Below, piece after piece: positions 9,935 through 20,101 of a DNA stretch of 64,000 nt (positions are counted from its first letter, which is position 1; every line of letters begins with the position of its first letter). The DNA comes from Patescibacteria group bacterium (GTDB lineage Bacteria; Patescibacteriota; Patescibacteriia; Patescibacteriales; UBA12465): contig JBAZBP010000001.1 of the NCBI GenBank assembly GCA_041671365.1, positions 261,518-325,517 of the forward strand. The letters run 5' to 3'. A program made the position numbers and the translations under genes. The notes beneath the pieces were generated by a model. It was not told the origin of the DNA and did no database searches. It saw only the letters and a program-made list of their open reading frames with translations.

Positions 9935-11092
9935 ATGTTTAAATTATTAAAAACAACTAAATCCGGAATACGTTTGGGTTTGATAAAAACCGTCCACGGT
10001 CTTATCAAAACCCCGTTTTATATGCCGGATGCGACTCGTGGTTTTGTTAAACTGACCGACAATGAAATTTTGAAGAAAACAAAAACAAACGCGTTAGTGG
10101 TGAATACTTTTCATTTATATTTACAGCCAGGTTTGGATATTATTAGGCGCGCCGGCGGAATTCATCGTTTTATGAATTGGCCCGGTCCGTTACTATCGGA
10201 TTCCGGGGGTTTTCAGGTTTTTTCGCTGATTCATAAAAATAAGGCTTTGGGAAAAATTACGGACGAAAAAGTAATTTTTAAATCTCCGCTTAATGGATCG
10301 CGGCACGAATTGACTCCGGAAAAATCTATTCAAATTCAATTTGCTTTAGGAGTTGATATGATGGTTTGTTTGGATGATTGCCCTCCTAATGAATTTTCTC
10401 GCGTTGATTTAGAACAAGCAGTTGAGCGGACTATCGCTTGGGCTAAAAGATGTAAGCAAGAATATAATCGGCAATTAAAAATTAAAAAATTTAAGGAAGG
10501 ACAGCGGCCATTATTGTTCGCGGTAATTCAAGGCGGGGCGGAAATTGATTTGCGTCAACGCTGTGCCCGGGAGTTAGTAAAAATCGGTTTTGACGGTTAC
10601 GGATTTGGGGCGCGGCCGGTTGATCATAACGGTAAATTTTTAAGCGAAGTTTTAGTTAAGACGGCTAGTTTTATTCCGACCAATGCCTTGCGCTTTGCCT
10701 TAGGCATTGGTACGCCGGAAGATATTATTCGTTGCGCTAAAATGGGTTGGGATATGTTTGATTGCGTTATTCCGACCAGAGAAGGGAGACACGGAAAATT
10801 ATTTTTTGCTTCAGAAACCCAGGGATTATTTCGATATAAAACTGTAAATATAAAAAATGGAAAATTCGGGCGTGATTTTAGCCCGATTAATAAAAATAGC
10901 CAGTTATTGGAGCTGAACACTAATTCTCGCGCTTATTTGCATCATTTGTTTAAACTCAATGAGCCGCTGGGGCAGCAGCTGGCCAGCTTGAATAATCTAG
11001 AATTTTATCAAGCATGGCTGAGAAAGATTGTTAAGGAAGGAGCCAGTAAAAAGCTTAAAATAGAAAATAGTTTAAACTTGGCAAAAGTTTAA
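9935..11092 (+). CDS. tgt: tRNA-guanine transglycosylase (queuine tRNA-ribosyltransferase) homologue
   Basis: TPFYMPDAT, LSDSGGFQVFSL, LFAVIQGG, LGIGTPEDI and GWDMFDCVIPTR motifs. The CxCxxC...H zinc site appears absent (see findings). Confidence 0.85.
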   Translation: MFKLLKTTKSGIRLGLIKTVHGLIKTPFYMPDATRGFVKLTDNEILKKTKTNALVVNTFHLYLQPGLDIIRRAGGIHRFMNWPGPLLSDSGGFQVFSLIHKNKALGKITDEKVIFKSPLNGSRHELTPEKSIQIQFALGVDMMVCLDDCPPNEFSRVDLEQAVERTIAWAKRCKQEYNRQLKIKKFKEGQRPLLFAVIQGGAEIDLRQRCARELVKIGFDGYGFGARPVDHNGKFLSEVLVKTASFIPTNALRFALGIGTPEDIIRCAKMGWDMFDCVIPTREGRHGKLFFASETQGLFRYKTVNIKNGKFGRDFSPINKNSQLLELNTNSRAYLHHLFKLNEPLGQQLASLNNLEFYQAWLRKIVKEGASKKLKIENSLNLAKV

Positions 11093-16904: not shown

Positions 16905-18413
16905 ATGAAGTCTAAATTTTTATCAACAATTTTTATTTTTTTAATCGGCGCCCTATTGTTTGGCGCTGATTTTAATGGAGCGCTTTCGTTTAACTCGTCA
17001 TTAGCTCGAGCCGCGGCCAATTTAAACGGTCGAATTTTGCTTCAAGTTCAGGCTCAAGGACAGGCTTGGTATGTTAATCCTGTAAACAGTCAACGTTATT
17101 ATTTAGGCCGGCCCGCCGACGCTTTCGCCGTTATGCGTTCCTTAGGGTTAGGCGTGACTGACGCTGATTTAAGTTCTTTTAAGGTTATGGCGCCGCGTCG
17201 TTTAGCCGGTCGAATTTTGCTTCAAGTTCAGGCTCAAGGACAGGCCTATTATGTTAACCCGTTAAATTTGAAATTATATTACCTTGGTCGCCCGACTGAC
17301 GCCTTTAATTTAATGCGGTCGCAGGGCCTAGGCATTAGCAACCAAGATTTGGCGTTGATTCCTATAGCGCAGACAGCGATAATGTCGGACGCTTCTATCT
17401 CGGTTAAAGCCACTTCGATCATCGGTCATTGGTTATTTAAATATCAAAATAATAATTACGAAATTTTTCAGAATCTTTCGCCGGCTTTATATCAGGCTTA
17501 TGCCGGTATGCCTAAAATTTATTCTTATAAAATCGGAGATGAACCGACGAATTTACGCGACTCTTTTTATGGTTTGTTTCTAACTTTAAGGTCCGGAGAC
17601 ACATCACTGGATGATTTGATTTCCCGATTGCGAATTATAGCCGTTGAAAATAATTGGACGAGCGATCAGTTATTGGAATTTACTTTAGCCTTGGTTCAAT
17701 ATATTCCTTATGATCACGCGAAGCTGGCGGCGGACAGCAATCGCAATACCGATCCTTATTATCCTTACGAAACTTTATATTTAGACCGAGGCGTCTGTTC
17801 CGATAAAACATTCTTAGCCGTTTCATTGCTCAGAAAATTAGGTTATGGCGCCGCTATTTTGGATTTTCCGGATTTAAATCATTCGGCTGTCGGCATCGCC
17901 TGTCCGGTCGCCGATTCTCTTAACGGTTCGGGTTATTGCTATGGCGAAACTACTAATTATTTTCCTTTAGGAGTTATTCCGCAGAGCATTAATTCCGGTC
18001 AGGCTCAGACTTCGGAAAATGGATTTACGACTTTATTTAATTCTTCTAATTTAGGTACGATTGAAATATATCAAAAAACTATTGGTAAAATTTATCAGGG
18101 GGTGCCGGCCACTCGCGCTCAAGTAGCCTTGCTCGCCGCGTCCAAAAATGATCTCGATGCCCGAGAAACGGAAATGACGGCCATACAAGCCGATATCACC
18201 GCGCAAGAAAAGGATTTAACGGCGATGAAAACACAAATGGATAATTATTATAACAACGGTCAAACTAGCCAATATAATAGTCTGGTAGCTAGTTATAATG
18301 ATTTAGTTAACAAGTATAATGCGGCGATTGTGAATTATCAGTCTAAAATCGCTGATTATAATCAAAAAGTAGTAGATTTTAACTTGGCCGTAAATAAATT
18401 TTATCAGAAATAA
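16905..18413 (+). CDS. secreted protein: two 60-aa N-terminal repeats, transglutaminase-like Cys/His core, C-terminal coiled coil
   Basis: Signal-like N-terminus; GRILLQVQAQGQAxYVNP..YYLGRP.DAF.xMRS.GLG occurs twice; RGVCSDKTFLAVSLLRKLGY...HSAVGIA core; Q/N/A heptad-like tail. Confidence 0.6.
   Translation: MKSKFLSTIFIFLIGALLFGADFNGALSFNSSLARAAANLNGRILLQVQAQGQAWYVNPVNSQRYYLGRPADAFAVMRSLGLGVTDADLSSFKVMAPRRLAGRILLQVQAQGQAYYVNPLNLKLYYLGRPTDAFNLMRSQGLGISNQDLALIPIAQTAIMSDASISVKATSIIGHWLFKYQNNNYEIFQNLSPALYQAYAGMPKIYSYKIGDEPTNLRDSFYGLFLTLRSGDTSLDDLISRLRIIAVENNWTSDQLLEFTLALVQYIPYDHAKLAADSNRNTDPYYPYETLYLDRGVCSDKTFLAVSLLRKLGYGAAILDFPDLNHSAVGIACPVADSLNGSGYCYGETTNYFPLGVIPQSINSGQAQTSENGFTTLFNSSNLGTIEIYQKTIGKIYQGVPATRAQVALLAASKNDLDARETEMTAIQADITAQEKDLTAMKTQMDNYYNNGQTSQYNSLVASYNDLVNKYNAAIVNYQSKIADYNQKVVDFNLAVNKFYQK
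17027..17065 (+). repeat. 39-nt perfect direct repeat, copy 1
   Basis: CGGTCGAATTTTGCTTCAAGTTCAGGCTCAAGGACAGGC, identical to 17207-17245, exactly 180 nt (60 codons) apart. Confidence 0.9.
17207..17245 (+). repeat. 39-nt perfect direct repeat, copy 2
   Basis: Identical to 17027-17065. Confidence 0.9.
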
Positions 18414-18474: not shown

Positions 18475-18505
18475 TTGACATGTAATAAACTTTGTGATGT
18501 AATAT
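18475..18505 (+). promoter_or_regulatory. sigma-70-type promoter candidate
   Basis: TTGACA (18475-18480), 17 nt, then TGTAATAT (18498-18505). An imperfect palindrome AATATTTCAATACT/CAAATATTGAATATT follows directly. Confidence 0.45.
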
Positions 18506-18579
18506 TTCAATACTCAAATATTGAATATTAACCCAAATTCGCCGGGTAAAGCGCGATAAAATTCTTTAACAAAATACTG

Positions 18580-19791
18580 GTGAAAAAAATGAAAAAGCAA
18601 GACAACACTGGTCTTGGACTCATCAAAACAACTATTGAGAGAGTTCAAAACGACAAGTCACTGTTTAACAGCGCACTTAATAAACTTGTTAATTCTTCGG
18701 AGGAAGAATTGGGCGACTTTCTAAAAAGGAAGATTGCGGGAACAGTTAAGGGTAATATTCTCCGCCTGATTTCCGGAGGACATGTTTTAACCCTCAAAGC
18801 TTTGAACGGCCAGTGTCTTATTTACAATTCCAAAAAGATTTTTAATTCTTTCATTGATTCGAATTTCGTCAATTGGAATTTAAATAAGACGGGCGTCGCT
18901 ACTCCAAAAACTCCGGTGCAGGTACACAAGATAGTCGGCGATGGTACAATAATGGAAATATTTAGCTCTATGCCAGGCAACTGGAACCAAAAATGGCTTT
19001 CGCAAAATCAAGTAATTGATTTCTGTGAGACGCTGTCCGATTGGTTGAGTCAGGACCATTATTCCACATTGTTTCTTATCAAAAAAGATGAGAATAAGCC
19101 GATTGACGAAGCCAAACCGCAGAATAACTTAGTTGCGGTAGACGTGGACGTGAGTTCAGGTGGACTGCATGTCGACGTGCGCCACCTTACAAATGGCAGT
19201 TCCTGGCAAGGCGAGTCTCGTCATCGCGTGGTCTCCCCGAAACTATTGACATTTTTAGCCGATAACGGCGAACTAAAGCCTTCAATTCTTCGTCTCATTT
19301 CTAATGGACAGACTTTGACTCTCAAAGCTTTGGACGGTCAGCGCCTCATCTATAATTCCAAAAAAACTTTTAAGTCCTATATCGACCAGAATTTCGTCGA
19401 TTGGGATTTAAATAAGACGGGCGTCGCTACCCCCGAGACTCTAGTACAGGTGCATGAAATAGTTGATAACGGTACATTTATCGACATTTTCAGTTCCATC
19501 CCAGGTAACTGGAACCAAAAATGGCTCTCGCAAAATCAAGTAATTGATTTCTGTGAAACGTTGCCCGATTGGTTAATTCAGAATAGACACGCCACGATGT
19601 TTCTTGTAAAAAAAGATGAAAATAAATCAGTTGACGAAGATAACCCACAAGAGAACTTAGTCGTGGTCAACGTGGATGTGCTTTCGGACGGTTTGTATGT
19701 GCGCGTGTCTTGCCTTGAGCATAACCTTGTCTGGCTTGGCGAGTATCGTAATTGCGTTGTCTCCCCACAACTTATACCTTTGGTTTCTTAA
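18580..19791 (+). CDS. hypothetical protein made of two tandem ~165-aa homologous modules
   Basis: Residues from ILRLISGG (nt 18757) and from ILRLISNG (nt 19285) align colinearly over about 163 aa with a 176-aa period. No signal peptide or TM. Flanked by its own promoter and terminator. Confidence 0.7.
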   Translation: MKKMKKQDNTGLGLIKTTIERVQNDKSLFNSALNKLVNSSEEELGDFLKRKIAGTVKGNILRLISGGHVLTLKALNGQCLIYNSKKIFNSFIDSNFVNWNLNKTGVATPKTPVQVHKIVGDGTIMEIFSSMPGNWNQKWLSQNQVIDFCETLSDWLSQDHYSTLFLIKKDENKPIDEAKPQNNLVAVDVDVSSGGLHVDVRHLTNGSSWQGESRHRVVSPKLLTFLADNGELKPSILRLISNGQTLTLKALDGQRLIYNSKKTFKSYIDQNFVDWDLNKTGVATPETLVQVHEIVDNGTFIDIFSSIPGNWNQKWLSQNQVIDFCETLPDWLIQNRHATMFLVKKDENKSVDEDNPQENLVVVNVDVLSDGLYVRVSCLEHNLVWLGEYRNCVVSPQLIPLVS

Positions 19792-19812: not shown

Positions 19813-19872
19813 TCCCTCGGATTCTTTGAACTTAGTCTAAAACTAAGCTCTTGGATTCCGAGGGATTTTTTT
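19813..19872 (+). terminator. rho-independent terminator (two-tier hairpin)
   Basis: TCCCTCGGATTC (19813-19824) pairs with GATTCCGAGGGA (19854-19865), with inner CTTAGT/ACTAAG pairing, followed by TTTTTTT. Confidence 0.7.
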
Positions 19873-19926
19873 ATTATGAAAGCATGGTTTTGCTTTGTCT
19901 GCCGACCAAGACTGTTGTAATTTATA

Positions 19927-19955
19927 TTGACATTAGTCAAAATTTACTCTATCTT
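19927..19955 (+). promoter_or_regulatory. promoter candidate for rpsB-tsf
   Basis: TTGACA (19927-19932), 17 nt, then TATCTT (19950-19955), about 145 nt upstream of the rpsB ATG. Confidence 0.45.
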
Positions 19956-20101
19956 TAATATAGAGGTTTAACCTCCGACCGCCGAGCGGTCATTTTATTA
20001 ATTATCATGCTCTCAGGGCCTTTTTGGCCATTATTTTTCTTCCTTGGTTTTCCGAGGCAGGAGGGCAGATGTAACAGGCTTTGGCCTTAAAAAGAAAAAA
20101 T

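Follow-up and report, generated by a model that had tools for sequence, protein, structure and literature searches.

Within the 64-kb stretch of Patescibacteria group bacterium DNA that we analysed (64,000 nt, hereafter the window), we studied a gene that encodes two tandem modules and whose product is 100% identical to the 400-aa JGI protein P0001 (Table 1). The mechanically defined open reading frame opens at GTG 18580 and runs to the stop at 19791. This GTG, taken as the start in a preliminary description made from the sequence, is not the likeliest one: ATG 18589 is preferred since related proteins begin there with MENQDN or MEKQDN and since GGTGA is found just 5' of it, and the product, read from this ATG, is probably 400 aa long. 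By eye, the protein has neither a signal peptide nor a TM segment.

As initially described, the surrounding genes are housekeeping genes: radical SAM, Fe/Mn SOD and His phosphatase genes upstream, and genes for ribosomal protein S2, EF-Ts, PSP1 and GAPDH downstream. The 502-aa product of the upstream gene (16905–18413) begins with a hydrophobic, signal-like segment and has a long C-terminal tail rich in Q and N as well as two copies of a ~45-aa repeat (GRILLQVQAQGQA[WY]YVNP.N...YYLGRP.DAF..MRS.GLG). It had no match in a Pfam search, and its gene lies in synteny beside the target gene in the sister contig L019 too. On the downstream side, the region 5' of rpsB (19927–20080) contains a strong promoter-like TTGACA–17 nt–TATCTT (19927–19955), and, beyond it, a GC-rich hairpin whose tail is T-rich (19977–19991, GACCGCCGAGCGGTC), which may be an rpsB leader or attenuator. 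A search of Rfam assigned no family to this region, and scanning the whole window and the locus itself for Rfam families and tRNAs gave no matches.

The TTGACA previously assigned to the gene is indeed present at 18475–18480 and is kept in L019, where the promoter-like sequence reads TTGACA–17 nt–TATATT. A consensus promoter scan made no call at 18475–18503, which is explained by the -10 hexamer, TGTAAT.

Table 1. Positions of the gene, its parts and its flanking signals in the window (DGR, diversity-generating retroelement; TR, template repeat; VR, variable repeat)
Feature	Position	Strand	Basis
Promoter-like TTGACA, 17-nt spacer, TGTAAT	18475..18503	+	Direct reading; position and spacing kept in sister locus L019
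Conserved 5' untranslated element ..CGCCGGGTAAAGCGCG..TTTAACAAAATACTGGTGA, with likely GGTGA ribosome-binding site	18523..18588	+	Similar elements in L015, L016 and L019
CDS, two-module DGR-type variable protein, 400 aa	18589..19791	+	Homology search (JGI protein P0001) and relatives' alignment
N-terminal leader, ~56 aa, three predicted helices	18589..18756	+	AF2 full-length model; present in most single-module relatives
Module 1, 163 aa	18757..19245	+	Self-alignment; confident fold in full-length model
VR1, former variable repeat of module 1, internal, most decayed	19133..19247	+	In register with relatives' TRs and VRs
Linker between modules, 13 codons, predicted flexible	19246..19284	+	pLDDT <50 at residues 222–230
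Module 2, 163 aa, ortholog of the sister P0003 single module	19285..19773	+	Alignment, NJ tree, AF2
VR2, variable repeat of module 2, terminal, followed by conserved hairpin	19661..19775	+	In register with relatives' TRs and VRs
Conserved two-tier hairpin and T-run	19813..19872	+	Folding; kept after every VR in 12 related loci
Cassette-spacer remnant (hairpin-to-TR spacer of intact cassettes)	19873..19915	+	35/43 to L012 (E 4e-6), 34/43 to L018 (E 2e-4)

Module architecture, family and predicted structure

The internal duplication recognised in the preliminary description is borne out by the self-alignment: the two modules align without gaps over 163 aa with 69% identity (E 1e-75, period 528 nt), and their DNA is 78% identical across the first 300 nt. 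Both belong to the subtype that carries a KKDENKPIDE insert (B, see below) and have a VR at their end. Also as described, the two modules share the near-identical stretch AACTGGAACCAAAAATGGCT.TCGCAAAATCAAGTAATTGATTTCTGTGA, in which 2 of 51 nt differ. We considered it as a possible DNA-level element and rejected this, since its synonymous sites are variable among relatives. Within the coding stretch that is best conserved in both modules (SQNQVIDF) lies a perfect 7-bp inverted repeat, AAATCAA-GTAA-TTGATTT, at 19005–19022 and 19533–19550; given the same synonymous-site variation in relatives, it probably just follows from the amino-acid sequence. The two-module ORF may have arisen by tandem duplication inside one gene or by the joining of two neighbouring target genes; on manual inspection the linker shows only marginal similarity to the C-terminal tail and to the end of the leader.

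Searches of the window protein against Pfam, PHROGs, NCBIfam and PADLOC returned only noise, as did a PDB sequence-profile search with the protein and a Pfam search with 91 family members (E≤0.1). Of the Pfam families into which known DGR VR domains fall (e.g. FGE-sulfatase, DUF1566), none matched the window protein at E≤10 or the 91 members at E≤0.1. The homology search yielded 96 close clusters, of which the labelled ones are all Patescibacteria or 'bacterium' and most are unlabelled; the majority are 221–249 aa long, corresponding to a ~56-aa leader and one module. An exhaustive profile search extended the family to 2,264 representative clusters at E≤1e-3 (600 at E≤1e-30), including proteins with two or three module-length matched stretches. 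The original assignment to an unknown family therefore stands only in the sense that no curated library recognises the protein, which otherwise belongs to a large family of Patescibacteria.

Multi-module relatives with two or three matched stretches include P0217 (476 aa), P0218 (560 aa), P0221 (381 aa), P0300 (355 aa), P0005, P0050 and P0054, some of them lacking the leader. P0217 and P0218 have three matched stretches each and are apparently three-module proteins. Since such relatives exist beyond the window gene, tandem fusion of VR-bearing modules is, as read from these alignments, a repeated event in the family.

Module 2 was modelled by AF2 with a pLDDT of 91.9 and a pTM of 0.87. The model has an N-terminal extension with two short strands, followed by beta(65–72), alpha(78–83), alpha(96–105), beta(116–122), beta(138–146), beta(149–156) and beta(170–174), and the VR covers the last three of these strands. 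The variable codons alternate with conserved Val and Leu in the pattern x-V-x-V-x-S-D-G-L-x-V-x-V-x-R-L, which on a beta-hairpin would place the variable side chains on one face. The full-length model (pLDDT 84.8, pTM 0.58) consists of two separately folded modules joined by a disordered linker and preceded by leader helices at residues 8–20, 25–34 and 38–56 (pLDDT 67–87), and it suggests a beads-on-a-string arrangement rather than a fixed pseudo-dimer. Foldseek searches gave no significant match against the PDB (module and full length) or BFVD, and none to any C-type-lectin DGR protein; the faint rows that were returned are snake-venom and BDCA2 C-type lectins (TM 0.30–0.42, probability ≤0.10).

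DGR cassettes in relatives of the window gene

The window protein had been described as isolated. This does not hold for its family, since homologues sit in DGR cassettes of relatives, in the order target gene, hairpin, TR, bAvd and reverse transcriptase (RT). A bAvd gene (PF22296, minus strand) and an RVT_1 RT gene lie directly downstream of the homologue in L001–L004, L016 and L017; P0012 and P0016 (both 61% identical to the window protein) and P0006 (66%) are encoded directly upstream of bAvd and RVT_1 RT, and in L018 a TR is found downstream of the target gene. Among the matches listed, target and RT share a contig for 13 homologue pairs, and recurrence on at least 13 contigs makes a coincidental linkage to RT, Avd and TR unlikely. 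The usual locus in relatives holds two tandem single-module targets and one TR, one target being of the 'A' subtype, which lacks the KKDENKPIDE insert, and the other of the 'B' subtype, which has it.

The VR of these relatives is the last ~115 nt of the target gene. The corresponding TR lies at 10995–11109 in L001 (VR at 10542–10656) and at 2475–2611 in L016, where it matches two VRs. Mismatches between a VR and its own TR fall almost exclusively at TR adenines (16/16, 16/16, 17/17, 16/18, 17/18, 12/13 and 8/9). P0012 and P0016 are identical save for scattered codons in the last ~40 residues, and the same positions differ between the two window modules; this pattern of differences is the signature of a DGR. 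The window gene is thus almost certainly a member of a DGR-target family. This connection to a retroelement, missed at first, accounts for the GC-rich C-terminal segments, the conserved hairpin and the differences between the modules.

A ~45-nt element, ..GCCGGGAAGTGCGG..TATTTTTAACAA.., is located 5' of every target gene (window 18523–18570, L015 5134–5185 and 5934–5985, L016 ~1440–1490, L019 190–240), and a related sequence lies 5' of the TR in intact cassettes (L001 ~10830–10880). As far as its distribution goes, targets and TR RNA could be coordinated through this element, as a promoter, operator or 5'-UTR structure common to them.

Not every target gene adjoins a cassette. L015 (5204–6675 of a 96.6-kb contig, Logan SRR19748635) and L006/L008 (JBAZKO010000002.1) contain one or two targets with nearly intact VR backbones (0–3 changes) and no adjacent TR, Avd or RT, which suggests trans-acting DGRs or very recent detachment in the clade; detachment alone is therefore no proof of inactivity. 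The target genes of L015 are followed by tRNA-like repeats and holA. In L018 (429–1701) and L015 (3675–4911) the target gene or cassette adjoins rpsT, rpsO and an NYN-domain gene, and the window gene adjoins rpsB and tsf; ribosomal protein genes inside CPR DGR loci have been noted before (Wu et al., PMC5758913).

In the intact relatives, RT and Avd would copy the TR into cDNA with misincorporation opposite adenines, and the cDNA would then replace the VR at the end of the target gene. Each homing event would rewrite ~9 AAY codons and several single-adenine codons. From the sequence pattern and the predicted secondary structure, the variable codons would occupy alternate positions of the C-terminal beta-hairpin and the loop that follows, forming a hypervariable ligand-binding face. 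An AAY codon can be turned into codons for 15 amino acids, and nine of them give 15^9, or ~4e10, variants.

Age of the duplication and drift in the variable repeats

The 925-nt contig L019, from SRR22388067, encodes a single-module protein, P0003, and has the same upstream gene end, promoter and 5' UTR as the window, with leader DNA that is 86% identical; judging by this shared arrangement, it is the orthologous locus of a sister genome. In an NJ tree built from 123 non-VR columns with 300 bootstraps, module 2 and P0003 were grouped in 285/300 replicates and modules 1 and 2 in 2/300. The possibility that the sister module is a recombinant of modules 1 and 2 was ruled out, as over its entire length it resembles module 2 more closely. 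Outside the VRs, modules 1 and 2 differ with a dS of 1.35 (dN/dS 0.11) and module 2 and P0003 with a dS of 0.40 (dN/dS 0.18); for the leader, window versus P0003, the values are 0.46 and 0.19. The saturated dS between the modules, together with the grouping of module 2 with the sister protein, indicates that the duplication is old and preceded the sister split, contrary to the earlier description of it as recent. Purifying selection acts on the leader and on both modules (dN/dS 0.11–0.19).

The slightly GC-rich composition that was reported for the gene is real and modest: its GC is 0.418 against an ORF mean of 0.394 ± 0.025 (z 0.95), with a GC3 z of 2.25. The excess is, however, confined to the two C-terminal VRs (0.565 and 0.504), and the remainder of the gene, at 0.392, matches the background. 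This, and the synteny of the locus with L019 (same upstream gene, promoter and leader), speaks against the horizontal acquisition that had been proposed.

Across five TRs of divergent genomes, 72 of the 86 non-A TR positions are invariant, and these served as the backbone reference. The two window VRs align in register with the TRs and VRs of the relatives, but they have drifted: VR1 is changed at 11 and VR2 at 7 of the 72 positions, as compared to 0–3 in thirteen VRs of other loci. Between VR1 and VR2, 41 positions are different, among them 15 of the 24 that are adenine in all TRs and 24 of the 86 in the backbone, and with 24 backbone differences they cannot both be recent copies of one TR. 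GC-to-AT changes make up 6/7 of the backbone changes in VR2 and 5/11 in VR1, as is expected from ordinary drift in a 39% GC genome acting on a TR-derived segment of 50–57% GC. The VR of P0003 has 9 backbone changes, none of them in common with VR2, and differs from VR2 at 14/24 adenine positions and 20/86 backbone positions; the flanking coding DNA differs at 8–16%. Evidently, as far as these substitution patterns can be read, diversification ran until about the sister split, after which both lineages drifted without TR-templated resetting.

No TR or further VR copy was found within the 64-kb window, nor was an RT-like YxDD ORF, and Avd is absent from it. A search for RT homologues gave a weak indication in the same direction: none of the best 120 matches (≥63% identity) lies on a contig of 529,534 bp, which is the length on record for the contig of the window protein. 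Downstream of VR2, the strong two-tier terminator of the preliminary description was recovered as a hairpin at 19813–19865 with a T-run (DNA dG -14 kcal/mol, z -4.5). The left arm of the post-VR hairpin, CTTTGTCCCT[CT]GGAT, does not vary across the 12 loci, and one pair shows a compensatory change from C-G to T-A; no comparable hairpin is found downstream of VR1. Efficient homing of the Bordetella phage DGR depends on a hairpin or cruciform just 3' of its VR (Guo et al. 2011, PMC3240598); the window hairpin is an intrinsic terminator and, by analogy, probably also a DGR target-recognition hairpin or cruciform. VR2 thus keeps the conserved VR 3' end and the hairpin that homing would, on the phage model, make use of, and VR1 has no hairpin.

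Beyond the hairpin, similarity to the hairpin-to-TR spacer of intact cassettes continues for 43 nt and stops after 19915, where the rpsB upstream region begins. This segment looks like the scar of a deleted TR–Avd–RT segment, and its position after the hairpin suggests that the cassette was once adjacent and was then removed. A VR that is still being diversified shares the backbone of its TR; here the backbones disagree both between VR1 and VR2 and between VR2 and the sister VR, and the window gene is probably no longer being diversified.

Taken as a whole, we consider it likely, at a similar level of confidence, that the window protein is a once-hypervariable ligand-binding DGR target that has become detached from its retroelement and is now frozen. 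Systems of this kind are known; what is unusual is the decayed state of this one. In the course of events that we propose, two B-type modules, each with its own VR, would have come to lie in one ORF behind a single three-helix leader; the TR, Avd and RT would have been lost from the locus, with 43 nt of spacer left behind; and both VRs would then have drifted by ordinary, mostly GC-to-AT, substitutions. By analogy with other DGR targets, the protein would most likely bind a ligand through two faces that are now fixed in sequence; we infer, too, that the cassette was lost by deletion and that the genome holds no DGR elsewhere. The gene most likely encodes a frozen bivalent binding protein kept by purifying selection. 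The part of the preliminary description that saw an accessory, non-housekeeping, binding-type protein of tandem modules fits this reading and is retained.

Alternative readings and place among known DGR targets

The window gene might instead be an active DGR target served in trans by a TR–Avd–RT cassette elsewhere in the genome, with VR2 as the live substrate and VR1 as a relic. Remote targets are documented for other DGRs (PMC5758913), and L015 and L006/L008 show that intact VRs occur away from a cassette. VR2 retains, besides the hairpin, a nearly intact 3' end (GTTGTCTCCCC.CAACTTAT, one change), and six of its seven backbone changes are compatible with a private TR that has extra adenines. 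TR backbones are, however, very conserved, yet VR2 and the sister VR differ at more backbone positions than the flanking coding DNA would predict and have no changes in common; the best 120 RT matches include no cognate RT on a contig of the length recorded for the window protein's, and the spacer remnant suggests that the cassette was adjacent before it was removed. We regard service in trans as quite unlikely.

Loss of the cassette and drift in both VRs could also be expected of a pseudogene-like relic that decays without function. This is very improbable: the 400-codon ORF is intact, promoter, leader and terminator are conserved, both modules model confidently, and the low dN/dS of leader and modules holds against the paralogous module as well as against the sister ortholog. 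Hardly credible, finally, is a recently duplicated and horizontally acquired stand-alone immunity or binding protein with no tie to a retroelement, a reading that draws on the position of the gene amid housekeeping genes, the lack of a curated match and the GC3 value, and that is countered by the homologues in DGR cassettes with their adenine-specific TR/VR mismatches, the dS between the modules, the grouping of module 2 with the sister ortholog, the background GC outside the VRs and the synteny in the sister; the immunity role in particular found no PADLOC match (0 families) and no toxin partner, the neighbours being housekeeping genes.

The preferred reading, a detached and frozen DGR target, places the gene next to the targets described for Patescibacteria and the CPR. 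Patescibacteria have their own DGR clade (clade 2), the targets of which have no recognisable domains or TM segments (Roux et al. 2021, PMC8144416), and VR classes of unknown fold ('UVR1-6') as well as remote targets have been described in the CPR (Wu et al. 2018, PMC5758913). The window protein shares with these the phylum-level host, the small size, the lack of a domain, TM segment or signal peptide, and the C-terminal VR, and its relatives share the cassette of target(s), TR, Avd and RT together with the adenine-specific mismatches. It differs from them in that one ORF holds two VR-bearing modules, that the 64 kb contain no TR, Avd or RT, and that both VRs show non-adenine drift. Like the seven extra targets of the Treponema DGR (PMC5758913), the window gene lies away from an RT; what identifies those remote targets is that they depart from the TR by A-to-N changes alone, whereas the two window VRs cannot both do so, given the backbone differences between them.

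One likeness to Mtd, the variable protein of the BPP-1 phage DGR, is a hairpin downstream of the VR, as required for BPP-1 homing (PMC3240598), although the window hairpin starts ~38 nt past the TR homology and not immediately after it. There is likewise a C-terminal VR with AAY-coded variable residues and a presumed ligand-binding face. Mtd of the Bordetella phage BPP-1 and TvpA of Treponema denticola are DGR variable proteins with a C-type-lectin fold. The beta-alpha-alpha-beta-beta-beta-beta order of the modelled module would be compatible with a CLec-like domain. Unlike in Mtd and TvpA, the variable residues of the window protein alternate along two predicted strands (x-V-x-V-x), and there is no sequence or profile similarity to these proteins and no significant Foldseek match. 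A further proposal, which we put forward tentatively and hold to be rather unlikely, is that the 163-aa module is a non-C-type-lectin scaffold for DGR hypervariation, or one divergent enough to form a new class, with randomised residues at every other position of a beta-hairpin; in that case the window gene would be its domesticated form, a bivalent fusion that has lost the retroelement, has fixed its specificity and is held by purifying selection.

The interest of the gene is modest: it comes from a two-module protein that is orphaned and yet maintained by selection, and from the fold of a CPR target family of very large size. A gene that would otherwise be 'hypothetical' joins a small number of known systems in which protein hypermutation is programmed, and DGRs are especially common in the tiny, host-dependent Patescibacteria. 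Tandem fusion of the family's modules is seen repeatedly, in two-module and apparently three-module proteins. A confident model of the family without a significant structural neighbour bears on how universal the C-type-lectin fold is for DGR VRs, and a target that has no retroelement and is still under purifying selection offers a natural 'frozen' variant to compare with live ones.
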